A stretch of 11,102 bases of DNA from Candidatus Thorarchaeota archaeon (GTDB lineage Archaea > Asgardarchaeota > Thorarchaeia > Thorarchaeales > Thorarchaeaceae), in assembly GCA_020348985.1 (NCBI GenBank), contig CP070761.1, positions 222,855-233,956 on the forward strand, read 5' to 3'. Below, in pieces: positions 4,630 through 11,102 of the stretch. The notes beneath the pieces are model-generated. The model saw nothing but the letters and a program-made list of their open reading frames with translations, had not been told where the DNA came from and searched no databases. The stretch's first letter is position 1. Every line of letters begins with the position of its first letter. The position numbers and the translations under genes were made by a program.

Positions 4630-4860
4630 TCAGGCTTTCGTTATTCTAGAAGCGAAGAGAAAATCTGAGTTTTCATACATCTTGTATTCCACAACAACCC
4701 AGTCACCGATTTTCATGGACTCGACAGATTCAGCTGATTCAATCTTCAATTCCACCTTTTCGTGCCCATGAGTCTTGATTGTTACATAGCCGTATGACGC
4801 CCCTGTAGTGGGGTATCTCACAATGTGTAATCCAACAATTTCTCCCTTCATCTCAGGCAC
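4630..4860 (-). CDS. Small hypothetical protein, probable OB-fold
   Basis: 76 aa with a beta-rich pattern ('MKGEIVGLHIV', 'YGYVTIKT', 'MKIGDWVVVEY', 'LFASRITK'). GTG start preceded by SD-like AGGTGGTGGG. Confidence 0.7.
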   Translation of the reverse strand: MPEMKGEIVGLHIVRYPTTGASYGYVTIKTHGHEKVELKIESAESVESMKIGDWVVVEYKMYENSDFLFASRITKA

Positions 4861-4958: not shown

Positions 4959-5057
4959 TCATTCTCGACCGAAGAGACCTCGATGACTAATCATATCCAA
5001 CGTACGCTCAATATCATCTTGCCATCTGACTTCTCCAATACCTGCTATTCTTGTCAA
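4959..5057 (-). pseudogene. N-terminal remnant of an asparagine synthetase B-like (class II amidotransferase fold) gene
   Basis: The TTG at 5057 overlaps the TGA of the upstream gene (TTGA). It reads MTRIAGIGEVRWQDDIERTLDMISHRGLFGRE*, resembling the AsnB N-terminus 'MCGIAGI...ML..I.HRGPDG'. It stops after 32 codons. Confidence 0.6.
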
Positions 5058-6712
5058 TCCTTAGTACTCATACTACTCAAAATCACACCTAGTCCGAGTT
5101 TCTCGAGTCTTGTAATCTCATCTATGGGTTCATCCGCATCTTCGTCTATTGCCAAGCATGCACCGTTGACCAAGCGAGTTTCGATTTCGCCTTTCGCAAC
5201 TGGGTTCGACCTAAGGTGAGGGGCATCTAGAAGTCCAATCCGAACAGCGTCGATATATGCGGTCGGATCTGTCAGAGGGTCCCGATTTCTATCCGAGCTC
5301 AGTGTTGCTATCGCACGAATGAGTATCCTAGATTCCTGAACTAAATTCTCTTTCCGCTTTTTGACTTCCTTATCTTGAAGTGGATCAGGAGAGCCCAACA
5401 AACAGTTATGGATTACACGATGAGCAATCTTACAACTCTCGATTACTTCTTCAGATGTAGCAGCATGATCAGCCTCACAGAAACCAACTACGTGGACAAT
5501 ATGGGGCTTTAGCAGCATTCCAGTGGAAATTGAAACCGCTAACTGTCCTTTTCCAAGGTGAGGGTCTGGAGGATAAGAGAAGAGTCCCGGCCTGATCTGT
5601 CTGACAGAATTGAACCGATGATCATGCAATGATTCAATGAGCTCAATCTTTGCCAGCATTTTCGCCAAATCCATCTTCGGAGAGGTCCCAAGAGGAGTAT
5701 TGAGCATGTATTGAGCAACATAGTGATGAACGCCAGCAGCTTTCGCATTATAGGCAGATAAGTAGGCCATTGCAACTGCGATTGTGTCATGCGCACCTCG
5801 CAAGCTCCAATGATGTGCTTCATTTACTTCGACTGGAATGTTCCGAATAGCATGCCACTCATAGTTTACCTGATTCTCCTTAATGGCAGTTTCCAAAGAC
5901 CTGTTGCTTCTTCCATCGAGTTCGCTGTACCAAAGCAAAGGAGTCGCACACCAAGCGTTGTTGACAGTATCCTTGAGCATTTGTGCCCATCCTAGAAGGT
6001 CGCGTGTTCCACTGTAACATCTCAAAAGTGGATGGTTGCCCCTGCGTGATGCCTTGAACAACCTACGAAGGTCGTCAGCTTTTCTTAACGGAACTCCTCC
6101 ATCACCACGAAGATTTTCCGATATCTCTGAAGGCCGAAAGAATGATTCCTGTGCACTTTGGTCAGGGCCTATCGAGATCACATCCAGTACGGAAGCTTCT
6201 GCAATTTGCTCGACTCCTTTGATTGTATCTTCCACTGAGGGAAGGCCAAAGTGATGCCGGATGATTGGTATCGGACTCTTGACCATGATTCTTGCTATCA
6301 ATTCCTGGGGATGTCTTTCTGCTGCTTGAATGCGTGTACGACCTCTGAGAAAGGCAAGTGTATCTTCGTCAGTTGACAATCCCGTGAATATCTCTTCAAA
6401 TAGGCCAACCTCTTCAGCAATTGATTTGATTGGGGCAGTACAACCCAAAACCCATCTTTTCTTCTCCAATCCGTGTTCCAGAGCCTTGTCTCTAAGTTCT
6501 TGAAGTAGGTGTGTTGCACTCTCCAGTGAGAGCCGATAACTCACTCCAACGACATCTGGGTCTTGTTCCTTGACTTTTCTTATCAGGTGGTCCACTGATA
6601 CTGCTGGTCCGAGGAATACTGTGTCATGACCGTCGGCTTCAGCCAGAGAGAGAAATCGGAACACACCGGCAACGTGCACACAGTTTCCAATTGCAGCCCC
6701 AAGTATCTTCAA
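5054..6712 (-). CDS. Cobalamin-binding domain fused to a TIM-barrel; glutamate-mutase-like (S+E fusion) enzyme of unknown substrate
   Basis: N-terminal B12-binding domain 'GAAIGNCVHVAG...VFLG...DVVGVSYRL...WVLGCT'. The C-terminal ~400 aa have GlmE-like segments 'PLLRCYSGTRD', 'HVVGFCEADHAAT' and 'AVRIGLLDAP'. TTG start with SD GAGGTG (6721-6726), overlapping the upstream stop. Confidence 0.8.
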   Translation of the reverse strand: MKILGAAIGNCVHVAGVFRFLSLAEADGHDTVFLGPAVSVDHLIRKVKEQDPDVVGVSYRLSLESATHLLQELRDKALEHGLEKKRWVLGCTAPIKSIAEEVGLFEEIFTGLSTDEDTLAFLRGRTRIQAAERHPQELIARIMVKSPIPIIRHHFGLPSVEDTIKGVEQIAEASVLDVISIGPDQSAQESFFRPSEISENLRGDGGVPLRKADDLRRLFKASRRGNHPLLRCYSGTRDLLGWAQMLKDTVNNAWCATPLLWYSELDGRSNRSLETAIKENQVNYEWHAIRNIPVEVNEAHHWSLRGAHDTIAVAMAYLSAYNAKAAGVHHYVAQYMLNTPLGTSPKMDLAKMLAKIELIESLHDHRFNSVRQIRPGLFSYPPDPHLGKGQLAVSISTGMLLKPHIVHVVGFCEADHAATSEEVIESCKIAHRVIHNCLLGSPDPLQDKEVKKRKENLVQESRILIRAIATLSSDRNRDPLTDPTAYIDAVRIGLLDAPHLRSNPVAKGEIETRLVNGACLAIDEDADEPIDEITRLEKLGLGVILSSMSTKD

Positions 6713-7956
6713 ATGTCGTCCACCTCTATTTCATAGAGGTCCCAACCTTCCTGAAGACTAGCAACTTCTATTGGTCTCTTGCCATTCTGAACATATTCTA
6801 CAACGTCTAGAAGACTCATGCCCAATAATCCCATGCTGATGAGATTCCTTCCTGTGTGCCAGAAGTCACAATCATATAGATGACATGCGATATTGATTAC
6901 AGCATCAATGGCGGGAGTGTCAACACCGCACAGTTTTCCTAAACGAGAAATAGGTACGAGTCCTGTTGGGACATCTTCTAGAACATATCGATGTTGAAGT
7001 GTGTCTGGACTCCCGACTCCATCATATGCATCTATGCTTCGAAGACATTCACAGAGCGATTCACCTTCAGCACCATACGCGTCCTGAAGCCAATCCAACA
7101 GGGTCATTGGATTTCGTGAGAAGTGTTTTCCCACTTTCACTCGCTCAGTATCCATTCTTTCAATTAGCTGTCCTACTGATTCAGATATTGCATCATGATA
7201 ATGGTTGTATCCACCATGTTTTGACTCTAATAGTCCTGCACACAAGATTGTTGGAGCCGGGTGTAGCATCGCACCAACATTGTTCAGCCCTGTTTCCAAC
7301 ACAGTATTGGCACGAACAAGAGAAATTGGAAGTACCTTCAAGCGGCTTAGGTACTCTTGGTTTCTAGTTGCCGGAAACGCACTGACTTGAACTCGGTTTT
7401 TGATCTTAGATATCAAGACGGAACTTGACCCGGTGGTTCTGGAAACAAAGCTAAAGGTCTGCGCCTCTCCCAATAGAGCGTAGTCTCCATCCGGGCAGAC
7501 TCCAGCAATCTGTGCAAACTCTAATGCGCCGCCAGTACGTCCTGGCATCAGAAGAACTAGCTGATTCTCTTCTAAATGTGGAGACATCCTGTATGCGAAG
7601 AAACTGTGGGCCTGAGCTGGCACAGTCACAATCAGAATATCTCGATTGCGGATAGTCTCTTCCATGTTATCAGAAACAATGCGAATAGGAGCAAATCCAT
7701 TGATTACTCCATAGACATCAAGGCCACCTCGTTCTATGATCCCCCGAACATTGTTGAGTGTACGATTGTAGAGTGAAACATCAAAACCATGGAGAGCAAG
7801 GTATCCAGCAAGACCTCTACCTGCGTGTCCTCCGCCCAACACGGCTATCCTAACCGAATACGATTTTCTTTTCTCACTCTGCATCGTTTGAATACGCACC
7901 GAATCTCCAAGTTCAGTCTCTAATGATTGATTACTAATCTTGGCCTTGGTGACCAT
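6709..7956 (-). CDS. NAD/NADP-dependent octopine/nopaline (opine) dehydrogenase family protein
   Basis: Rossmann 'IAVLGGGHAG', 'GEAQTFSFVSR', 'LNNVGAMLHP', 'MDTERVKVG' and 'HRYVLEDVPTGLVP'. The start is ambiguous (GTG 7962, ATG 7956 or ATG 7884). Confidence 0.92.
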   Translation of the reverse strand: MVTKAKISNQSLETELGDSVRIQTMQSEKRKSYSVRIAVLGGGHAGRGLAGYLALHGFDVSLYNRTLNNVRGIIERGGLDVYGVINGFAPIRIVSDNMEETIRNRDILIVTVPAQAHSFFAYRMSPHLEENQLVLLMPGRTGGALEFAQIAGVCPDGDYALLGEAQTFSFVSRTTGSSSVLISKIKNRVQVSAFPATRNQEYLSRLKVLPISLVRANTVLETGLNNVGAMLHPAPTILCAGLLESKHGGYNHYHDAISESVGQLIERMDTERVKVGKHFSRNPMTLLDWLQDAYGAEGESLCECLRSIDAYDGVGSPDTLQHRYVLEDVPTGLVPISRLGKLCGVDTPAIDAVINIACHLYDCDFWHTGRNLISMGLLGMSLLDVVEYVQNGKRPIEVASLQEGWDLYEIEVDDI

Positions 7957-8075
7957 GTACACCCTTCAATTGACCAACTCAAGTTAGTAACCAATGAGCT
8001 CGTCTCATTCTCTTGGAAGCTTGGCTAATCCCTATTCCGCACATACCCTCGAATTTCAGCTTATTAGTATTATGA

Positions 8076-8174: not shown

Positions 8175-8209
8175 AGAAATGATGGCGCTGAGGGAGAGAT
8201 TTGAACTCT
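8175..8209 (-). repeat. att-like direct repeat, tRNA-proximal copy
   Basis: agaaatgAtggcgctgagggagagatttgaactct. It covers the tRNA T-arm through CCA plus 8 nt of trailer. Confidence 0.95.
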
Positions 8210-8295
8210 CGAGTGCATAACACACTGGATGATTGCAGGACTGCCAATAGCATTCTTTAGCAATCCAGCGCCATACCAGGCTTGGCTACCTCAGC
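8183..8295 (-). tRNA. tRNA-Ser(GCT) with a 27-nt intron at 37/38 and encoded CCA
   Basis: Acceptor GCTGAGG/CCTCAGC with G73 and CCA; D-stem GCC/GGC; anticodon stem CTGGA/TCCAG with loop TT-GCT-AA after splicing; long variable arm GTGT-TAT-GCAC; T-arm GAGAG-TTCAAAT-CTCTC. Mature length is 86 nt. Confidence 0.97.
8231..8257 (-). other. tRNA intron with bulge-helix-bulge splice motif
   Basis: A 4-bp helix TTGC/GCAA is flanked by 3-nt bulges TA|A and TC|A. Intron sequence: AAGAATGCTATTGGCAGTCCTGCAATC. Confidence 0.92.
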
Positions 8296-10400: not shown

Positions 10401-11102
10401 GTGATAGTGAACGTGGTGGGGAACAGTCAGATTCCATCTTTCTTTATGCTATTGACATTGATCATCGCAAGCTGTATGATTACTCCTTTACCATCTTCGG
10501 ATCTCGAGAATATTGAAGCTGAATATGGCGGAACATGGGATACTGATGGACAAGATACCTGCGAGGATCTCGAGATTAATAAGCATGGTGAAGCATATAC
10601 TGTAGGCACATCAATCCCTTCCCCAGGGAATCTAGATATCTCTCTTGTCAAATGGAATTCTGAGGCCAATGTGACATGGGTTAGAGTCATGCATGGCATA
10701 AACAGCAGCTATCCAAGGGCCAACGCGCGTGCTGTCGAAACATTTGGCGACTCGGTTTTTGTTGTCGGAGGATGTCAGAATCTGCTAAATGATGTCAGGA
10801 TGCTGTTAGCCAAGTGGTACTCAAACGGGACATTGGCATGGTATGTCATAAGTGAAGAAACCAGAGAAGGCACCGATCTGGGAATTGCGATTGACGGGTC
10901 CATCTATGTTGTCGGTCTAGCCAACGTAACCCAACCCGGGCTTTTCCTCGCTAAGTTCAACTCGTCCAACGGACATCGCGAATGGATGAAGCGGTTTTCT
11001 GGCTACTATACCGGCTATCTACCAAGATTGGAAATCTCAACTGACGACCATGTCATAACTTTCACATCATCAACAGTCATCAGGTGGAAGCTAAATGGTG
11101 AG
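10401..11102 (+). CDS. Secreted beta-propeller repeat (SBBP-like) protein, 5' part only
   Basis: The frame is open to the window end. Signal-like 'FFMLLTLIIASC' is followed by repeats 'GEAYTVGT..DISLVKWNSEANVTW', 'DSVFVVGG..MLLAKWYSNGTLAW' and 'DGSIYVVG..LFLAKFNSSNGHREW'. The start is uncertain (GTG 10401, 10407, 10413 or 10416). Not in the ORF track. Confidence 0.8.
   Translation, partial: MIVNVVGNSQIPSFFMLLTLIIASCMITPLPSSDLENIEAEYGGTWDTDGQDTCEDLEINKHGEAYTVGTSIPSPGNLDISLVKWNSEANVTWVRVMHGINSSYPRANARAVETFGDSVFVVGGCQNLLNDVRMLLAKWYSNGTLAWYVISEETREGTDLGIAIDGSIYVVGLANVTQPGLFLAKFNSSNGHREWMKRFSGYYTGYLPRLEISTDDHVITFTSSTVIRWKLNGE

Follow-up and report, generated by a model that had tools for sequence, protein, structure and literature searches.

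Which reaction is carried out by a cobalamin protein that has cysteine instead of aspartate in its DxHxxG motif and whose gene is translationally coupled to that of an opine dehydrogenase? The question is raised by a stretch of 11,102 nucleotides from a Candidatus Thorarchaeota archaeon (assembly GCA_020348985.1, contig CP070761.1, positions 222,855 to 233,956), here called the window, which encodes a 552-residue protein with an N-terminal B12-binding domain followed by a barrel of the type found in GlmE, the epsilon subunit of glutamate mutase. Our analysis points at a single-chain, base-off/His-on enzyme of the GlmS plus GlmE type that probably employs adenosylcobalamin (AdoCbl) for a radical 1,2-rearrangement of a substrate other than glutamate. 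The family has been noted before. Zhang, Rodionov, Gelfand and Gladyshev (2009; BMC Genomics 10:78, PMC2667541) predicted it to be B12-dependent on account of a distant N-terminal B12 domain and found it in 11 bacteria from four phyla, always beside a pfam02317 octopine/nopaline dehydrogenase and with genes for Asn synthase and D-Ala-D-Ala ligase nearby; the barrel was not recognised as GlmE-like. The window protein combines the same N-terminal domain with an adjoining pfam02317 dehydrogenase and thus belongs to this family, for which a GlmE-like fold, the adenosyl-binding Glu, the Cys motif, sister groups that are MutL-fused or carry DxHxxG, and members in Asgard and other archaea are now defined in addition.

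The assignment to the mutases is carried by the barrel. An AlphaFold 2 (AF2) model was calculated from a 28-sequence alignment (predicted local distance difference test score, pLDDT, 92; predicted template modelling score, pTM, 0.91). In a Foldseek search of the PDB, glutamate mutase epsilon (1cb7_B) came first with an E value of 7.7e-15; next in rank were the ornithine and lysine aminomutases together with acyl-CoA mutases. The same chain is the top match in VIA (Z 32.5 over 374 residues at 2.9 A, model residues 131-534 lying on chain residues 41-440); barrels of lysine 5,6-aminomutase (LAM) reach Z values of 28-30, ornithine 4,5-aminomutase (OAM) about 26.5 and methylmalonyl-CoA mutase (MCM) about 21. 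Searches of PDB sequences with the single sequence and with a 28-sequence profile matched B12 domains and not GlmE, so that the link to GlmE needed the fold search and hhalign. With the latter, a 58-sequence family profile aligned with 25 canonical GlmE sequences taken from genomes at a probability of 90% and an E value of 1.5e-6 over 385 columns, a span that agrees with the structural alignment; a 14-column match returned in global mode was meaningless and was discarded. The original prediction, which had been made from the DNA letters alone, had expected glutamate mutase epsilon or another AdoCbl mutase barrel as the top PDB match, and had considered that methyltransferase or pterin-binding barrels might match better. 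Such barrels do not lead: those of the dihydropteroate synthase (DHPS) type score a VIA Z of about 16 over 239 residues, and MtaB/MttB chains are absent from the matches listed. Its proposal of collinear GlmE segments is borne out as well, since hhalign reproduces the pairs RHHFGLP~QPRAGVA, DVISIGPD~DLLPTTID, PLLRCYSGTRD~P-LQVRHGTPD, VVGFCEA..AT~VKTPHEA..PT and AVRIGLLDAP~AFQAGVIDVP, and the fused domains do stand in the S-then-E order that it had described.

The N-terminal domain passes the Pfam threshold of PF02310 (36 bits on residues 2-74, cut-off 32.1), a model matched by 27 of the 28 family members, and residues 1-127 of the AF2 model superpose in VIA with Z values of about 16 on corrinoid and mutase B12 domains (4jgi, 2yxb, MttC). 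The His, Gly, Ser and Gly residues of the cobalamin-binding motifs are retained. Aspartate in DxHxxG normally forms a hydrogen bond to the cobalt-ligating His. Residues 11-16 of the window protein read CVHVAG, as had been noticed at the outset, and this variant is no peculiarity of one genome: C11, H13 and G16 are unchanged in 13 homologs with identities down to 53%; of 118 close full-length homologs 107 have them, as has every deep representative (identity down to about 39%), and the Cys is present in 35 of 35 orthologs. The GC pair reported in place of the later GG is equally real, G90-C91 aligning with the GG of 4jgi, but it is lineage-specific, most orthologs having GG. In the canonical GlmS of Anoxybacter, GADVHAVG is followed by SSL at +45 to +47 from the motif His and then by VGGN; S58 of the window protein lies at exactly +45. 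By gapless count against GlmS, the leucine of SxL is replaced by R60 (6533-6535), which is invariant among the orthologs and present in 21 of 23 sister sequences, while the pairwise alignment with 4jgi puts L61 at this position instead. If the first equivalence holds, an arginine within this cobalamin-tail motif might reflect a different lower-ligand pocket. A further GlmS-like segment that had been proposed, LRDKALEHGLE, is collinear by eye with FPQKCKEAGLDD of Anoxybacter GlmS, but this likeness does not extend to BLASTP, which gives no significant match between the B12 domain and that protein.

Residues of the barrel were equated with those of GlmE in the hhalign profile alignment, with GlmE numbering anchored on a gapless alignment to 6h9e_B (offset 21). 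The region of R66 and R100 was misplaced with the 28-sequence profile and corrected with the 58-sequence profile, which includes the sister groups. In GlmE, glutamate is bound by an arginine claw made up of R66, R100 and R149, and E171 contacts the amine of the substrate (PMC10947579). Glu330 of glutamate mutase engages the adenosyl ribose, as do its counterparts Glu370 in MCM and Glu338 in OAM, and a role of this residue in Co-C homolysis is documented for all three enzymes (PMC4413051). The counterpart of E330 in the window protein, E413, falls into a confident alignment block and is present in 34 of 35 orthologs and 21 of 23 sister sequences. None of the three claw arginines is found; the residues at their positions, H154, Q188 and Y233, are each conserved and belong to a strongly conserved set that further comprises R152, D177, S180, R231, D266, R268, E295, N297, R305, D309, Q334, K351, R374 and H407. 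As judged from the alignment, the Glu that handles the cofactor is kept and the glutamate-binding residues are swapped for this different set. The claim of the original prediction that the glutamate-binding arginines and the catalytic Glu appear to be replaced therefore stands for the arginines but is not established for the Glu; E171 aligns, albeit with low confidence, with the invariant D266 and may survive in this form. The His-rich barrel motifs to which it had drawn attention are present, H154, H300 and H407 being conserved and H153, H301 and H404 variable.

A new substrate had also been proposed, and two observations speak in favor of it: the arginine claw is lost, and Anoxybacter carries a complete canonical set (GlmS, the GlmL-type MutL and GlmE) in addition to the orphan mutase. 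The score pattern suggests that three more genomes hold canonical GlmE together with the orphan.

The family is large and widespread. We found at least 7860 homologs of the 552-residue protein, with relatives in at least 590 species genomes from groups that include Asgard archaea, Bathyarchaeia, Euryarchaeota, Bacillota, Bacteroidota, Ignavibacteriota, Aminicenantes, Chloroflexota, Armatimonadota, Cloacimonadota and Planctomycetota. The closest ones stem from Thorarchaeota/Promethearchaeota (66-74% identity). Within the host phylum the gene occurs in 77 of 201 genomes, 38 of 85 high-quality genomes and 17 of 43 genomes of the same family, a patchy spread that indicates an accessory rather than a core function. 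A representative search revealed the barrel also in proteins of about 600-636 and of more than 1200 residues. The sister proteins of 610-636 residues mostly have canonical DAHTLG, and the relatives exceeding 1200 residues keep CxHxxG and are fused to MutL (PF13941), the GlmL-type partner of glutamate mutase. It was the representative library that yielded these MutL fusions; a search for fused relatives above 966 residues in the 5.8-billion set found none. Both sister groups keep the conserved pocket residues, and an Octopine_DH gene lies directly upstream in each example examined. The shared pocket and the shared dehydrogenase partner point to one functional family in which Cys or Asp in the motif is a variant, and radical chemistry with AdoCbl is made more likely by the fusion of relatives to a chaperone of the GlmL type.

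The dehydrogenase encoded upstream in the window resembles N-(1-D-carboxyethyl)-L-norvaline dehydrogenase (CENDH, 1bg6), with which it aligns over residues 38-385 at an E value of 5.7e-61, the His and RY..ED motifs included. The listed reading frame has about 37 residues ahead of the Rossmann GxGxxG (N-terminal part 7885-7962, minus strand), and translation may in fact begin at the internal Met27, because similarity to CENDH sets in at residue 38. The TTG start of the mutase-like gene and the stop of the dehydrogenase gene overlap by four bases (TTGA). Homologs of the 552-residue protein start at the same residue, which, together with the overlap and a Shine-Dalgarno-like sequence, makes the TTG start credible and shows the two genes to be translationally coupled. 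The arrangement is general: among 73 loci from many phyla whose flanks are long enough, 70 have an Octopine_DH-family gene as the immediate upstream neighbor on the same strand. Such obligate pairing makes it probable that the mutase acts on or forms an amino acid or else an opine-type N-(carboxyalkyl)amino acid.

A third gene is less constant. An AsnB-like gene follows immediately downstream in about 22 of 80 loci and about 0.5 kb further downstream in one more; Cys-2, the nucleophile of the glutaminase, is absent from 22 of 24 copies, and their scores stay below the AsnB equivalog cut-offs. Genes for ATP-grasp enzymes of the D-Ala-D-Ala ligase type are found nearby in nine loci, and one family member (P0136) is fused to an ATP-grasp domain of the GSH-S type. 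In the window the AsnB-like gene is reduced to an N-terminal stub, 56% identical over 32 residues (tblastn, E 8e-5) to the intact gene in the closest Thorarchaeota locus (L038:7659-9008), and tblastn finds no further signal of such a gene beyond the stub's stop. At L120:2450-4578 the MutL-fused paralog adjoins Mur-ligase and FemAB genes, and at L122:3762-4463 the ATP-grasp-fused member is followed by a Peptidase_C26/GATase gene, which hints that the module may be associated with the chemistry of peptides or gamma-glutamyl compounds. In six loci of the Tissierellia type (L053, L077, L089, L091, L101, L116) the pair is situated between subunits of a 2-oxoacid:ferredoxin oxidoreductase and FabH/FabK/FabG; all six belong to one order and this neighborhood may be plain synteny.

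As to the cofactor, the host genome contains a canonical AdoCbl operon for the MCM small subunit, the MeaB GTPase, the MCM large subunit and a glyoxalase-type epimerase (L008 5899-9388; G000:C1:2089000-2105000) and encodes a PduO-type adenosyltransferase, from which it follows that AdoCbl is made and used in this organism. The MCM small subunit of the genome has the canonical motif, DGHDRG. A second weak PF06368 (Met_asp_mut_E) match in the genome was considered as a paralog of the window protein and rejected, as it is the canonical MCM large subunit and has no significant BLASTP similarity.

Taken together, we propose that H13 of the N-terminal Rossmann domain would ligate cobalt, with C11 standing in for the Asp that hydrogen-bonds this His, and that the barrel would hold the adenosyl group via E413 and the substrate in a remodelled pocket that includes R152, H154, Q188, R231, Y233, D266, R268, E295, N297, R305, K351, R374 and H407. 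The mutase would work as an obligate pair with the coupled CENDH-type dehydrogenase, and in other lineages either an adenylating enzyme of the AsnB-like kind or a ligase of the ATP-grasp kind would extend the pathway, the third gene having decayed in the window. More tentatively, and with somewhat more doubt than confidence on our part, it is conceivable that dehydrogenase and mutase, joined in many lineages by the AsnB-like and ATP-grasp enzymes, make or break a new opine-type or branched amino-acid metabolite common in anaerobes through an undescribed AdoCbl rearrangement, of which an N-substituted amino acid might be the substrate, and that nature uses the Cys-His pair as a new means to tune the Co-N bond in His-on cobalamin. 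By analogy, the logic of such a pathway would resemble that of PylB-PylC-PylD (mutase, ATP-grasp ligase and dehydrogenase).

Other readings have to be weighed. The protein could be an aminomutase that depends on both pyridoxal phosphate (PLP) and AdoCbl and, in the manner of lysine 5,6- or ornithine 4,5-aminomutase, shifts an amino group of a diamino acid. The barrels of LAM and OAM come shortly behind GlmE in the structural comparison (Z 26-30), the sequence matches include the B12 domain of OAM, and the dehydrogenase partner implies an amino-acid context; still, GlmE scores higher with more residues aligned (374 versus about 335), and residues 1-130, the part in which OAM and LAM carry their PLP-binding Lys, contain no Lys conserved at 90% or more, so that we regard this function as improbable. 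We likewise give little credit to a non-radical corrinoid protein, whether an enzyme of methyl-transfer or Co(I) chemistry or a protein that carries or senses B12, in which the Cys would serve thiol or redox chemistry at cobalt. The Cys at the canonical Asp position would fit, the B12 domain is closest in sequence to MtaC/MttC-type proteins with a weak match to TIGR02370, and databases often name family members 'methionine synthase'. Yet the barrel scores Z 32 with mutases as opposed to about 16 with pterin-binding barrels, the adenosyl-binding Glu is conserved, relatives are fused to MutL, and a sister clade with the same pocket has normal DxHxxG. That the B12 domain is degenerate and does not bind cobalamin, with the barrel either catalysing a reaction that needs no cofactor or accompanying the dehydrogenase as a non-catalytic partner, appears very unlikely: the loss of the canonical Asp and the R60 count (set against L61 in the 4jgi alignment) could be taken that way, but the motif His, Gly, Ser and Gly are invariant across hundreds of species, PF02310 is above its cut-off, and the whole domain is under purifying selection. 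A fused but functional glutamate mutase (EC 5.4.99.1) interconverting glutamate and 3-methylaspartate is hardly tenable, despite GlmE being the best structural match and E330 (possibly also E171) being kept, since the whole claw is replaced, the PF06368 score is under the cut-off, canonical GlmE exists alongside in Anoxybacter and, by score pattern, in three more genomes, and the constant neighbor is an opine dehydrogenase instead of methylaspartase.

An AdoCbl-dependent radical mutase with a non-glutamate substrate also has points standing against it. The residue equivalences derive from profile alignment and not from superposition of the model, and K326 of GlmE aligns with V409. The His-Asp pair is without its Asp. 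By sequence, the B12 domain is closer to 4jgi (7.7e-6) and MttC (1.3e-3) than to GlmS (0.04). PF06368 yields 16.8 bits with the window protein, below its cut-off of 26.6; canonical GlmE scores above 700 bits, and within the family 14 of 28 members match PF06368, P0136 above the cut-off. A MutL/GlmL-type chaperone was found neither in the window, in agreement with what had been stated beforehand, nor in the entire 3.16-Mb genome, a single contig. NCBIfam has no model for the family, and in the literature we found no characterisation later than the prediction by Zhang et al. and no biochemistry for any member.

The features of the window are listed in Table 1. Beyond the operon, the aEF-1alpha gene lies near the mutase-like gene. 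Just upstream of the operon, Rfam detects a tRNA (49.4 bits) that ARAGORN missed in the window; its span of 110 nucleotides against the 71 positions of the model indicates that it probably contains an intron. A small reading frame between the AsnB-like stub and a gene for a zinc-ribbon membrane protein has no Pfam match, and two genes at the other end of the window, the first with many N-x-S/T sites in its product, are unrelated to the mutase-like gene.

Table 1. Location of features in the window and residue equivalences with GlmE.
Feature	Position	Strand	Basis or remark
Fused B12-binding and GlmE-like barrel protein, 552 aa	5054..6712	minus	open reading frame
N-terminal B12-binding Rossmann domain, residues 1-127	6332..6712	minus	PF02310 and structural match
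C11-V-H13-V-A-G16 replacing DxHxxG	6665..6682	minus	invariance in orthologs
GlmE-type (beta/alpha)8 barrel with C-terminal helices, residues ~131-534	5111..6322	minus	VIA, Foldseek, hhalign
E413 codon	5474..5476	minus	counterpart of GlmE E330
GlmE R66 (arginine claw), equivalent to H154			hhalign
GlmE R100 (arginine claw), equivalent to Q188			hhalign
GlmE R149 (arginine claw), equivalent to Y233			hhalign
GlmE E171 (contacts substrate amine), possibly equivalent to invariant D266			hhalign, low confidence
GlmE K326, equivalent to V409			hhalign
GlmE E330 (binds adenosyl ribose), equivalent to E413			hhalign, confident block
Shine-Dalgarno-like GAGGTG	6721..6726	minus	8 nt before the TTG start, from sequence
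CENDH-type opine dehydrogenase, translationally coupled	6709..7962	minus	PF02317 at 2e-43
AsnB-like gene, N-terminal remnant, 32 codons then stop	4959..5057	minus	overlaps the stop of the mutase-like gene by 4 nt
76-aa open reading frame	4630-4860	minus	no Pfam match
tRNA, probably intron-containing	8186-8295	minus	Rfam
Right-handed beta-helix/NosD-like protein, 689 aa	8296-10365	plus
Second probable surface protein, after the NosD-like gene	10401-11102	plus

To our knowledge, about a dozen reactions of AdoCbl isomerases are known. If the proposed function is correct, the metabolism of anaerobes would gain another class of reaction along with a hidden metabolite, and models of how cobamides are shared would have to include one more demand for B12, in organisms as different as Asgard archaea, Bacteroidales of the gut type and thermophilic Clostridia in culture. 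Many members are mislabelled as 'methionine synthase' or 'methylmalonyl-CoA mutase subunit'. The natural exchange of Asp for Cys beside sister proteins that keep Asp and have the same pocket offers a ready comparison for studying how the His-Asp pair controls Co-C reactivity.

Among known systems, glutamate mutase GlmS/GlmE from Clostridium cochlearium (EC 5.4.99.1; 1cb7, 1ccw, 6h9e) stands closest, as it has the B12 Rossmann domain and the (beta/alpha)8 barrel in common with the window protein, which resembles it further in the collinear blocks, the best fold match, the adenosyl-binding Glu and possibly the amine-binding acid (E171, D266). The window protein differs in being one chain in S-then-E order, in having Cys for Asp before the His, and in lacking about nine residues that carry Y177 and Y181 in GlmE; GlmL and methylaspartase are missing from the window system, and the protein is paired with an opine dehydrogenase. 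OAM and LAM have AdoCbl barrels of the same superfamily, and OAM likewise combines barrel and B12 domain on one chain, however in reversed order. The partner gene product, in turn, is similar over its full length to CENDH from Arthrobacter, but whereas CENDH is a stand-alone catabolic enzyme, the dehydrogenase in the window is translationally coupled to a B12 enzyme.

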